From a virus (taxonomy: Duplodnaviria; Caudoviricetes), in IMG/VR virus record IMGVR_UViG_3300005544_000020, positions 172,091 to 236,090 of that record: 64,000 nt of DNA; one strand, 5' to 3'. A program made the position numbers and the translations under genes. The notes under the pieces were generated by a model. That model did no database searches, was not told the origin of the DNA, and saw only the letters and a program-made list of their open reading frames with translations. Below, in pieces: positions 1,393 to 20,118 of this stretch. The stretch's first letter is position 1. The number at the start of each line of letters is the position of its first letter.

Positions 1393-1466
1393 TGGTGCTC
1401 CCGACGGGATTCGAACCCGTATGCGGACTTTTAGAGAGTCCTAGCCCGCCTTTGGCCCACGGGAGC
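1393..1466 (-). tRNA. tRNA with CUA anticodon (amber suppressor), CCA end encoded
   Basis: 74-nt cloverleaf: acceptor GCTCCCG/CGGGAGC, D-stem GGCC/GGCT with GG in loop, anticodon stem GGACT/AGTCC with loop CT-CTA-AA, 4-nt variable loop, T-arm ACGGG-TTCGAAT-CCCGT, A73, CCA. Confidence 0.92.
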
Positions 1467-5435: not shown

Positions 5436-5801
5436 CTACGCCCCCATCCTGCGCTCGGCCTCGTAGATCGCGTCGACCTCGCGCAGGTCGCGGCGATGCT
5501 GGTAGTAGGCCTTCAGTTCCTTCTCGAGGCCTTGGCGCTTGCACTCTGCGGCGTCGACGACCAGTTCCACGCGCTTGCCCTCGCAGCGCTCGCACGTGAT
5601 GTCGTAGCGGCCCGAGAAGTAGCCTTCCTCGAAGTCCGGGTCGTCATCGAACTCTTCCTGGCCGATGCCGTTTCCGTCGATCGCGGGGTTGACGTGCTTG
5701 CCCTCGCCGTCGCAGCGGCTGCAGACCTCATACTTGGCCGGCAGCTCCACTTCGATCTCGCAGGTTTCCTCATCCAGGGTCGTGAACGTGATCGTCGCCA
5801 T
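5436..5801 (-). CDS. hypothetical Zn-finger protein (CxxCxGxG ... CxxCxG)
   Basis: CSRCDGEG and CERCEG; first gene after a strong promoter; ends in TAG. Confidence 0.8.
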   Translation of the reverse strand: MATITFTTLDEETCEIEVELPAKYEVCSRCDGEGKHVNPAIDGNGIGQEEFDDDPDFEEGYFSGRYDITCERCEGKRVELVVDAAECKRQGLEKELKAYYQHRRDLREVDAIYEAERRMGA

Positions 5802-19241: not shown

Positions 19242-19547
19242 CTATCCTTCGATCACATAGAGCATCGGAGGGCCTTGGAGTCCCAGCTTCAAACTGGCGG
19301 CGAGCTCCTTGAGAGCCTGCTGCTCCTGGGCATCCGGGATCTGGATGCCGGCGTATTCCTGGCCGTTTCGGATATCAACCGTTCCCAGATGTCGTCCGAC
19401 GAAGGAGGTCTTGCCGTTCATCGTCATCGTGAGCGTGATGCCGGCATTCAGGGCATCCTCGCCCTTCTCCATCATCATGCTGTTCCGGATCTCGTCGGAG
19501 ACCTGCCAGCCGTGAACCAGGTACAGATTCTTCGGGATCGGCATCAT
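19242..19547 (-). CDS. hypothetical protein
   Basis: ATG at 19547 overlaps the TGA of the upstream read-through gene. Confidence 0.65.
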   Translation of the reverse strand: MMPIPKNLYLVHGWQVSDEIRNSMMMEKGEDALNAGITLTMTMNGKTSFVGRHLGTVDIRNGQEYAGIQIPDAQEQQALKELAASLKLGLQGPPMLYVIEG

Positions 19548-19819
19548 AGGCACACGTATTCCTGATCTGGATCTCCACCTGGCCGGCGACGGCCTGATTT
19601 AGGTTCGCGCATCCAGCCCTTAGGCTCTTTTTCCTTCGTAGGATCCCACCGATAGAGTTCGCGCACGGCGACCTCAGGATCGTCGTATCACCAGCCTTGG
19701 TCGTAGGTCATGAGATCGCCCGGCCCCAGGCAGAGCCGCGCCCGGCCGAACGTCAGGGGCACGACCGCGAGAGCCCGACCATCAGGCAGCATCCGTACCG
19801 CCAGGAATTCGTCGCTCAT
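19544..19819 (-). CDS. 91-codon phage-type protein with in-frame TGA at 19688-19690 (selenocysteine candidate or nonsense pseudogene)
   Basis: MSDEFLAVRMLPDGR...YDQGW*YDDPEVAVRELYRWDPTKEKEPKGWMREPKSGRRRPGGDPDQEYVCL; ATGA coupling at both outer ends. Confidence 0.7.
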
Positions 19820-20118
19820 AGAAGCTGTCCCTGGGCTACTTCGAAGTGCTTTGGCCTGCTCCAGCAGCCGCATTCGGAACCATGGCTCTGCAGGCAGGCC
19901 TCGAACTCCTTCTTCTGGACTGAATCCTGGGCCTTCTTCGCCACCTCGAGGTATTCGGCGCTCGGGCTCTTGTCGACTTCCTGCCCGTTCCGGTAATGGC
20001 GCCAGATGAGCCTTCGAAGATCTGCAGGTACCATCGTCCAGTGCTTGTAGCACATGAAAAGGTCCGGCCTTACCGGAATACCGCAGTATCGGGCATGACA
20101 GAAGTGTGGAGTATCCAT
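19816..20118 (-). CDS. hypothetical Zn-binding phage protein
   Basis: HFCHARYC..FMCYKHW motif. Confidence 0.75.
   Translation of the reverse strand: MDTPHFCHARYCGIPVRPDLFMCYKHWTMVPADLRRLIWRHYRNGQEVDKSPSAEYLEVAKKAQDSVQKKEFEACLQSHGSECGCWSRPKHFEVAQGQLL

Follow-up and report, generated by a model that had tools for sequence, protein, structure and literature searches.

Selenocysteine (Sec) use is known in bacteria, archaea, eukaryotes and a few animal poxviruses. The reference bacterial SelB-dependent recoding site is Sec140 of E. coli formate dehydrogenase H (fdhF), in which an in-frame UGA is followed, within the coding sequence, by a small stem-loop (SECIS) whose apical loop holds GGU. Among viruses, the selenoproteins listed in PMC8310308 are the glutathione peroxidases (GPx) of molluscum contagiosum virus and fowlpox virus, the latter with a SECIS that also lies inside the coding region. 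In the literature that we could search, including reviews of viral recoding (PMC8310308) and of prokaryotic selenoproteomes (PMC9312934 and PMC13188914) and the BSepDB database (PMC13326102), we found no mention of a selenoprotein of a phage or other bacterial virus. Here we describe a small gene of a 236-kb soil phage (IMG/VR record IMGVR_UViG_3300005544_000020) that has a conserved in-frame TGA followed by a candidate SECIS hairpin of the bacterial type. The analysed stretch, hereafter the window, comprises 64,000 nucleotides (positions 172,091 to 236,090 of the record), and its relevant features are as follows.

19544..19819, minus strand: candidate selenoprotein gene, 91 residues (43 aa, Sec44, 47 aa) plus the terminal TGA at 19546-19544; ATG at 19819-19817.
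19688..19690, minus strand: in-frame TGA (codon 44), the proposed Sec codon, between W43 and Y45 on predicted strand beta-4.
19676..19687, minus strand: 12-nt spacer (UACGACGAUCCU, codons Y-D-D-P) between the UGA and the base of the hairpin.
19655..19675, minus strand: candidate SECIS hairpin GAGGUCGC-CGUGC-GCGAACUC, with a 4-bp upper stem (19671-19668 with 19662-19659), a G.A mismatch, a 3-bp lower stem, and the apical loop CGUGC at 19667-19663, starting 20 nt after the UGA.
19816..20118, minus strand: upstream gene (100 aa, PHROG 18063, unknown function), whose TGA stop overlaps the ATG of the candidate gene (ATGA, 19819-19816).
19242..19547, minus strand: downstream gene (101 aa from the ATG at 19547, no family hit), whose ATG overlaps the terminal TGA of the candidate gene (ATGA, 19547-19544).

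Translation of the window confirmed that the TGA lies in the context ...YDQGW-TGA-YDDPEVAVRELYRWD...SGRRRPGGDPDQEY and is followed by 47 sense codons. Since the terminal stop overlaps the ATG of the next gene, we infer that any termination-reinitiation coupling would need ribosomes to pass codon 44. The protein belongs to an unnamed, mostly viral family of at least 1,500 clusters. Profile searches gave a weak match to PHROG 24748, a phage family of unknown function (E 5.6e-5, 24.3 bits, residues 4-83 on profile positions 24-101 of 115), and no Pfam, NCBIfam or PDB sequence match; there was no Pfam hit for the window protein at E <= 1 or for any of 80 members at E <= 0.1. The AF2 model of the read-through sequence is confident (mean pLDDT 96.3), but the predicted fold has no clear match to any family: Foldseek against the PDB gave no hit at E <= 0.001, and the best VIA-align score (Z 5.3) was in the noise range of that search, as were the matches to the WGR domains (PF05406) of PARP1 and PARP3 (Z 4.3-4.5). 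A search of the protein atlas returned only unnamed, mostly viral clusters, and megablast of 10 kb around the gene against GenBank phages found no near relative.

To determine whether the TGA is conserved, we collected relatives from metagenomes and from IMG/VR viral contigs. A first scan of IMG/VR with an N-terminal pattern found nothing, whereas a repeat with a second alignment found 67 loci. The TGA occupies the same column in 41 metagenome and 32 IMG/VR loci, which make 66 distinct sequences. Protein identity to the window runs from 38 to 93%, and the end branches on the tree have a median of 0.5 changes per column, although the loci were found through a C-terminal peptide pattern, which biases the sample towards close relatives. 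The same column holds Cys in 24 distinct sequences from the same loci, in plasmid copies, in cultured Caulobacter and Brevundimonas jumbo phages, and in 76 of the 156 best uninterrupted cluster representatives, against Asp in 26 and Glu in 18. A Cys form (locus L005) sits inside a well-supported (99/94) clade of TGA forms. The earlier note had given a family motif that places Cys at the TGA, and this is borne out: among the best uninterrupted members W43, Y45, W58 and the SGRRRPxGD..EY block are conserved, and Cys is the commonest residue at column 44. Downstream of the TGA the frame stays open for 43-51 codons in 65 of 66 forms and holds the most conserved residues of the family. Differences from the closest relatives of the window are mostly synonymous, with 17-18 synonymous against 8-11 non-synonymous for the three more diverged relatives and 5 against 3 for the closest (L011), indicating purifying selection downstream of the TGA.

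Next, we examined the RNA downstream of the TGA. The earlier note had proposed a long GATCC/GGATC plus CGCCG/CGGTG hairpin. This structure exists in the window (19681-19642), but it is not conserved across the family: on the family alignment it pairs 53.6% of cells, against 50.8% in shuffles. The conserved element is instead the compact hairpin at 19675-19655, preceded by a spacer in which UAC GAC is nearly invariant in TGA forms. We compared it with the consensus bSECIS model of PMC13188914 (loop of 3-9 nt, upper stem of 4-16 bp, G in the first two loop positions, 16-37 nt between the UGA and the loop, MFE <= -7.5 kcal/mol). The window satisfies these constraints (spacing 20, loop CGUGC, stem 4 bp, MFE -14.2 kcal/mol for the 48-nt segment), as do 57 of 66 TGA forms, against 11 of 35 non-TGA forms (Fisher p = 5e-8). 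The criteria are permissive in GC-rich DNA, and 9 of 66 TGA forms fail them in their MFE fold. The loop starts exactly 20 nt after the UGA in 49 of the 66 TGA forms and in 0 of the 35 non-TGA forms. The loop is GGUC in 34 forms and of the CGUG type in the clade of the window.

Much of the stem is forced by the Ala-Ala-Val-Ala-Ala coding (GCN GCN GUN GCN GCN), and only the paired third positions and the synonymous sites of the loop are independent evidence. The codon third-position pair 27-36 shows CG 7, GC 7, UA 7, AU 2, GU 2 and UG 1, with a covariation score of 0.332 against 0.189 in shuffles (0 of 500 shuffles as high). A second set of IMG/VR sequences, none identical to the first, gave 0.380 against 0.151, again with 0 of 500. 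A covariance model, which carries family-specific sequence, recovered the window hairpin as its only significant hit in the window (a self-hit of 34.4 bits) and found a TGA form not used to build it (L069, 26.6 bits, E 8e-7). The signal that exceeds chance is comparative. Taken alone, the hairpin of the window is weak, with its 42-nt fold being no better than chance (z = -0.37, 70 of 200 shuffles folding as well), and the site ranks 254 of 883 in-frame TGAs with long open frames on both sides in this genome. These candidates are mostly non-coding frames of GC-rich DNA, and the scan is uninformative for finding further selenoprotein genes. An Rfam scan of the window at gathering thresholds gave nothing, and a permissive scan of 19400-19900 gave only chance hits (PhotoRC-I, an lncRNA) and no SECIS family, which says little since bacterial SECIS elements are poorly covered by Rfam.

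We then searched for the Sec machinery. The ~90%-complete phage record has no tRNA-Sec, selA, selB or selD, and ten other phage records with TGA or TAG forms have no tRNA-Sec above the cut-off; a 91-nt candidate drawn by ARAGORN with an 8/5 fold is a tRNA(CAU) with a duplicated D-arm segment. The phage would therefore depend on its host, which is unknown, and availability of the machinery is assumed; tblastn with the neighbouring HerA-like ATPase found only two unannotated gut phage contigs. The one genome-binned TGA form, in a Caldilineaceae MAG, lies in a bin that has selB above the curated cut-off (299.9 bits against 242.25), although this is a single 3.4-kb contig whose binning may be wrong.

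Collectively, these results support the core inference of the earlier note, a viral selenoprotein with Sec at a Cys position, and we consider it highly likely that the gene encodes a 91-residue phage selenoprotein, although selenium incorporation has not been shown experimentally. In the mechanism we propose, the SelB-GTP-Sec-tRNA(Sec) complex of the host binds the small hairpin that starts 12 nt after UGA44 and delivers Sec at the UGA, and the ribosome goes on to translate the strongly conserved C-terminal half (…EPxGWxR…SGRRRPGGD..EY). Where Sec-tRNA(Sec) is not delivered, translation should stop after 43 residues and would then also fail to reach the ATGA junction with the next gene. SelB binding, dependence on the selA/B/C/D of the host and the effect on the downstream gene are inferred. 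No redox motif such as CxxU is present; the column holds Sec, Cys, Asp or Glu across the family, which suggests a nucleophile or a metal or ligand contact next to an Arg-rich conserved motif, but this is speculation.

The alternative that survives best, while remaining unlikely, is programmed UGA readthrough or regulated termination without Sec, in which the hairpin would slow the ribosome or hinder release factor 2 so that a near-cognate tRNA (Trp, Cys or Arg) reads UGA in a fraction of ribosomes, yielding 43-aa and 91-aa products in a set ratio. A conserved stop with a conserved downstream hairpin would also fit a readthrough signal, as would the lack of phage-borne Sec machinery, the weakness of the hairpin in the window, and the two relatives (L015 and L092) that have TAG rather than TGA with the hairpin intact. 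However, the stop sits exactly where uninterrupted homologs most often have Cys, which is the standard signature of Sec; the hairpin meets the bSECIS constraints at a fixed 20-nt spacing and shares the GGUC loop of fdhF; and the loop nucleotides at synonymous sites (the G of GCG, the C of GUC) are conserved, which points to recognition of specific bases and not of a mere obstacle. Moreover, hairpin-stimulated stop-codon readthrough of this kind does not appear to be an established bacterial mechanism, and the TAG variants can be explained by hosts whose tRNA(Sec) reads UAG.

Two separate genes, a 43-aa peptide gene ending at the TGA and a second small ORF starting at GTG 19666 (the 40-aa ORF 19544..19666), are very unlikely. 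Both pieces are listed as separate ORFs, and gene callers split relatives in this way (P0006, P0008 and P0010 all end at the W), but uninterrupted homologs are single proteins that align across the junction, AlphaFold folds the read-through sequence as one compact domain with pLDDT 96-98 across residues 11-80, which span the junction, and the residues between the TGA and the GTG (YDDPEVA) are conserved as coding sequence. A recent nonsense mutation, the alternative raised in the earlier note, a pseudogene or a base-call error (TGC/TGT to TGA) is excluded: although a single base separates the codons and a close relative (P0003/L005, 84% identical) has TGT, TGA occupies the column in 66 distinct sequences from many samples and assemblers, with purifying selection downstream and a covarying hairpin. 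Genome-wide reassignment of TGA (as in genetic codes 4 or 25), although stop-codon recoding is known in some phages, is refuted for this genome, in which ORFs of at least 120 aa cover 80% of the sequence under table 11, TGA is the commonest stop and ends 128 of 251 long ORFs and the upstream neighbour (as it ends 43 of the 66 TGA-form genes themselves across the relatives), no tRNA with a UCA anticodon is present in the record, and the suppressor tRNA that the phage carries has the anticodon CUA, which reads UAG and not UGA.

It is likely, though less certain than the assignment of this gene, that the family is the first to be described of selenoproteins encoded by bacteriophages, widespread in soil and groundwater phages, jumbo phages included, with lineages switching between Sec and Cys and with rare TAG variants that may track hosts reading UAG as Sec. 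Expression of the full-length protein, and possibly of the gene coupled to its stop codon, would then depend on the Sec capacity of the host and on selenium supply. A phage family with Sec in dozens of lineages would mean that phages exploit the recoding machinery of the host and not only its standard translation, would make selenium supply and the host Sec trait possible factors in phage gene expression and host range, and would offer a small, confidently folded protein for asking why Sec is preferred over Cys outside classical redox enzymes. Since gene callers split these genes at the TGA, the family, and probably others like it, is systematically mis-annotated in viral catalogues.

Compared with fdhF, the loop tetranucleotide GGUC is identical in most family members, starting at nt 22 from the U of the UGA in fdhF and at nt 24 here, and Cys-containing homologs exist. 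The protein, however, is unrelated, being a 91-aa single domain with no cofactor-binding or redox motif; the gene is carried by phages and not by a cellular chromosome; and we saw no counterpart of the bulged U of the fdhF element. As with the poxvirus GPx selenoproteins, a virus carries a gene with an in-frame UGA proposed to be read as Sec by the machinery of the host, but those are viruses of animals that captured cellular GPx genes and use eukaryotic SECIS elements and SBP2/eEFSec, whereas this is a virus of bacteria with a candidate bacterial-type SECIS directly after the UGA, and its mostly viral family has no known cellular enzyme relative. The TAG column of L015 and L092, with an intact GGUC hairpin, is what a phage would need in a host whose tRNA(Sec) reads UAG, as in the natural recoding of codons other than UGA to Sec by tRNA(Sec) with altered anticodons (Mukai et al. 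2016, PMC4833512, as summarised in PMC10778597); this is a lead and not a result, and the window itself uses TGA. Finally, the homologs in cultured jumbo phages (Caulobacter phage C2 gp253c and other Bertelyvirus; Brevundimonas phages Marchewka and Bambus) and on Pseudomonas and Skermanella plasmids, annotated as hypothetical proteins, share the family, the length, the W/Y-C-Y context and the C-terminal GW.RH…RRR..GD block at only 32-43% identity to the window protein. They have TGC or TGT in place of TGA, and in the wider samples of non-TGA forms none carries the hairpin at the 20-nt spacing.

The finding lies in the last 64 kb of a 236,090-bp IMG/VR virus record that is about 90% complete, in a run of short, tightly packed minus-strand genes of unknown function next to a HerA/DUF87-like ATPase. 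The candidate gene reads MSDEFLAVRMLPDGRALAVVPLTFGRARLCLGPGDLMTYDQGW, then TGA as codon 44, and then continues in frame for 47 codons (YDDPEVAVRELYRWDPTKEKEPKGWMREPKSGRRRPGGDPDQEYVCL). The sequence statements of the earlier note, which had described an in-frame TGA in an intact gene coupled to its neighbour and a hairpin downstream of it, all check out. The relevant features, on the minus strand, are as follows.

19819-19817, ATG start codon of the candidate gene, overlapping the TGA stop of the upstream gene (ATGA).
19690-19688, in-frame TGA, codon 44.
19675-19655, candidate hairpin, with its apical loop CGUGC at 19667-19663.
19546-19544, terminal TGA, overlapping the ATG of the next gene.
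19816-20118, upstream gene, translationally coupled to the candidate and encoding a 100-aa Cys/His-rich protein (PHROG 18063, unknown function); it is syntenic with the family gene in the loci L002 and L005-L009.

To determine whether the read-through protein belongs to a known family, we searched it against sequence, profile and structure databases. It has no Pfam, NCBIfam or PDB sequence match and only a weak hit to PHROG 24748. It does, however, belong to a large family: a profile search of 1.84 billion cluster representatives found 1,542 hits at E <= 1e-3 and 732 at E <= 1e-10, and the language-model neighbours are unnamed clusters that are 71-86% viral. Members occur in cultured jumbo phages of Caulobacter and Brevundimonas as well as on 121 plasmids, mostly Pseudomonas megaplasmids, and all are annotated as hypothetical proteins. 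In all, 117 Pseudomonas plasmid records carry a homolog; in one case (L164, P. aeruginosa plasmid NZ_CP052760.1, 61678-61923) a Cys-form homolog (…HKRYCYED…) with a shorter, diverged C-terminus that lacks the GRRRP block lies where the PLSDB gene table lists no CDS. Among the 156 best uninterrupted members, the column aligned with the TGA is Cys in 76, Asp in 26 and Glu in 18, and it is flanked by a near-invariant W/Y and Y/F. AlphaFold2 with an 80-sequence alignment predicts a confident single domain (mean pLDDT 96.3) with four strands, one helix and a structured C-terminal segment, in which residue 44 lies on strand 4. No solved structure matches convincingly: Foldseek found nothing at E <= 0.001, the best VIA-align Z was 5.3, and WGR domains score Z 4.3-4.5, which is in the noise range. 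The alternation of Sec, Cys, Asp and Glu at one exposed-strand position, next to an invariant Arg-rich block (S-G-R-R-R-P-x-G-D), suggests a nucleophile or a ligand contact, although this is speculation.

Next, we examined whether the in-frame TGA is conserved. Three database homologs (P0006, P0008 and P0010) end exactly after the W, and their DNA shows an in-frame TGA followed by the conserved frame. A pattern scan of JGI metagenome contigs returned 54 loci, of which 41 have TGA at this column, 1 has TAG, 10 have TGT or TGC, and the rest have other residues. The same scan of IMG/VR viral contigs returned 67 loci, of which 62 could be placed: 32 TGA, 1 TAG, 24 Cys codons, 3 Asp and 2 His. After removal of identical sequences there are 66 distinct TGA forms, which are 38-93% identical to the window protein, with end branches on the tree having a median of 0.5 changes per column. 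The frame stays open for 43-51 codons after the TGA in 65 of the 66. In one member (L040:1590-1595) the TGA is followed directly by TAA, the Y45 codon TAC having become TAA, while the hairpin and the rest of the frame are intact; this is probably a dead copy or an assembly or sequencing error. Against its closest relatives the window shows mostly synonymous codon differences downstream of the TGA, with 17-18 synonymous against 8-11 non-synonymous for the three more diverged relatives, much as upstream, and 5 against 3 for the closest, the locus L011. The downstream half is therefore translated and under purifying selection.

To test for a changed genetic code, we assessed stop-codon usage across the genome. 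Under table 11, ORFs of at least 120 aa cover 80% of the phage genome, and TGA is the commonest terminator, ending 128 of 251 such ORFs. The candidate gene and its upstream neighbour both end in TGA, and 43 of the 66 TGA-form genes end in a second TGA. The recoding must therefore be specific to one site in the mRNA.

In the TGA forms a compact hairpin follows at a fixed position. The stem has 6-10 bp and is built from the codons of A-A-V-A-A (GCN GCN GUC GCN GCN), and the apical loop begins 20 nt after the UGA. The loop is GGUC in 34 distinct sequences, AGUU in a few, and of the CGUG type in the window's clade. While much of the stem follows from the amino-acid sequence, the third codon positions that face each other do not, and these covary. 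On the metagenome set, pair 27-36 is CG 7, GC 7, UA 7, AU 2, GU 2, UG 1, and pair 24-39 shows six pair types; the covariation score is 0.332 against 0.189 in shuffles (0 of 500 as high), and all slid registers score lower. On a second set of 29 IMG/VR sequences, none identical to the first, the score is 0.380 against 0.151 (0 of 500), with 75% of cells paired against 61% in shuffles. The loop bases at synonymous sites (the G of GCG and the C of GUC) are also nearly fixed in TGA forms.

Cys and other forms lack the element: none of 35 has a qualifying loop at the 20-nt spacing, against 49 of 66 TGA forms. When we applied the generic bSECIS constraints of PMC13188914 (loop 3-9 nt, stem >= 4 bp, G in the first two loop positions, spacing 16-37 nt, MFE <= -7.5), 57 of 66 TGA forms passed against 11 of 35 others (Fisher p = 5e-8). 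A covariance model built from 35 sequences finds the TGA form L069, which was left out of the model, at 26.6 bits, and the divergent L004, whose hairpin is shifted by one codon, at 12.8 bits.

The window's own element has the sequence GAGGUCGC-CGUGC-GCGAACUC, with a 4-bp upper stem, a G.A mismatch and a 3-bp lower stem. The loop CGUGC keeps G and U at nt 25-26 from the U of UGA, the same nucleotides as the G and U of the GGUC loops, and the element passes the bSECIS constraints. It is weak, however: the 42-nt fold has z = -0.37 against shuffles, and the site ranks 254 of 883 among in-frame TGAs with open frames on both sides in this genome. On the window alone the hairpin claim could not be distinguished from chance, and it is the comparative data that carry the argument. 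The different hairpin proposed in the earlier note (GATCC/GGATC + CGCCG/CGGTG, 19681-19642) is not maintained in relatives, with 53.6% of cells paired against 50.8% in shuffles.

To establish whether the phage encodes its own selenocysteine machinery, we searched the 236-kb record for the corresponding tRNA and protein genes. ARAGORN finds three tRNAs: two tandem tRNA-Ala(CGC) genes (G000:C1:169649-169898, in the full phage record about 2.2 kb upstream of the window start) and one tRNA with anticodon CUA (window 1396-1466, minus strand). None has a UCA anticodon. The tRNA(CUA), an amber suppressor that ARAGORN labels 'Pyl', scores 54.2 bits on Rfam tRNA in a local scan, although the whole-window scan at gathering thresholds listed nothing; it has an ordinary 7/5 cloverleaf, so it is not a tRNA-Sec, and TAG still ends 75 of 251 long ORFs in the genome, so what it suppresses is unclear. 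A similar tRNA(CUA) lies in the locus L047 at 5628-5704, beside a Cys-form family member. The tRNA-Sec model, selB, selD and selA all score below threshold or not at all. Ten further phage records that carry TGA or TAG forms also lack a tRNA-Sec above the cut-off. In one IMG/VR record, which holds the locus L097 and belongs to a phage carrying a TGA-form gene, an 86-nt tRNA with anticodon GCA (Cys) and a long variable arm, unusual for tRNA-Cys, scores 38.5 bits on the tRNA-Sec model, below the cut-off of 47 (L160:1500-1585, minus strand). One odd 91-nt candidate (L150:1501-1591), drawn by ARAGORN with an 8-bp acceptor stem that mimics a tRNA-Sec, turned out to be a tRNA(CAU) with an internal duplication in the D-arm region (GCGCAGTGGCAGCGCAGCAGTGGCAGCGCAGTGGG). 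The phages would therefore rely on host SelA, SelB, SelC and SelD, although the host of this phage is unknown. The only TGA form found in a binned genome is a 3.4-kb contig of a Caldilineaceae MAG, and that bin encodes SelB above the curated cut-off (299.9 bits against 242.25), which is consistent with this dependence but thin.

TGA forms dominate the part of the family nearest the window. The Cys form L005 (TGT) is nested in a well-supported (99/94) clade of TGA forms and keeps the CGUG loop sequence, but its lower stem no longer pairs, a pattern that fits a recent switch from Sec to Cys. Two unrelated members, L015 (TAG at 2593-2595) and L092 (an IMG/VR record of 63 kb), with 65% and 73% G+C, have TAG at the column, each with an intact GGUC hairpin at the usual spacing. 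Since natural Sec recoding of UAG by tRNA(Sec) with a matching anticodon has been reported (PMC10778597, citing Mukai et al. 2016), these may be phages of such hosts. This is a lead only, and no tRNA(CUA) or tRNA-Sec was found in the L092 record.

Taken together, the best-supported reading, which we hold with high though not complete confidence, is SelB-dependent insertion of Sec at UGA44, directed by the hairpin and using host factors; SelB binding, selenium insertion and the dependence on the host are inferred. The main surviving alternative is hairpin-stimulated readthrough without Sec, which we consider unlikely: it does not explain why the stop sits at the Cys column, why specific loop bases are fixed, or why the geometry matches the SelB-binding element. 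A nonsense mutation, pseudogene or base-call error cannot explain the conserved TGA and the selection downstream of it, stop-codon usage rules out a changed genetic code in this genome, and a two-gene reading is rejected on the predicted single-domain fold.

A review of viral recoding names only poxvirus GPx genes as viral selenoproteins (PMC8310308), two reviews of the prokaryotic selenoproteome and the BSepDB paper contain no mention of phages or viruses, and full-text searches, including one aimed at prophages, found no phage selenoprotein, which is absence from the literature that we could search and not proof of absence. The mechanism itself is the known bacterial one; what is new is the protein family and its carrier, and the interest lies in where it is found and how widespread it is. 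E. coli fdhF, as read from the MG1655 record, has UGA at codon 140 and the same GGUC apical loop, starting at nt 22 from the U of UGA, against nt 24 here.
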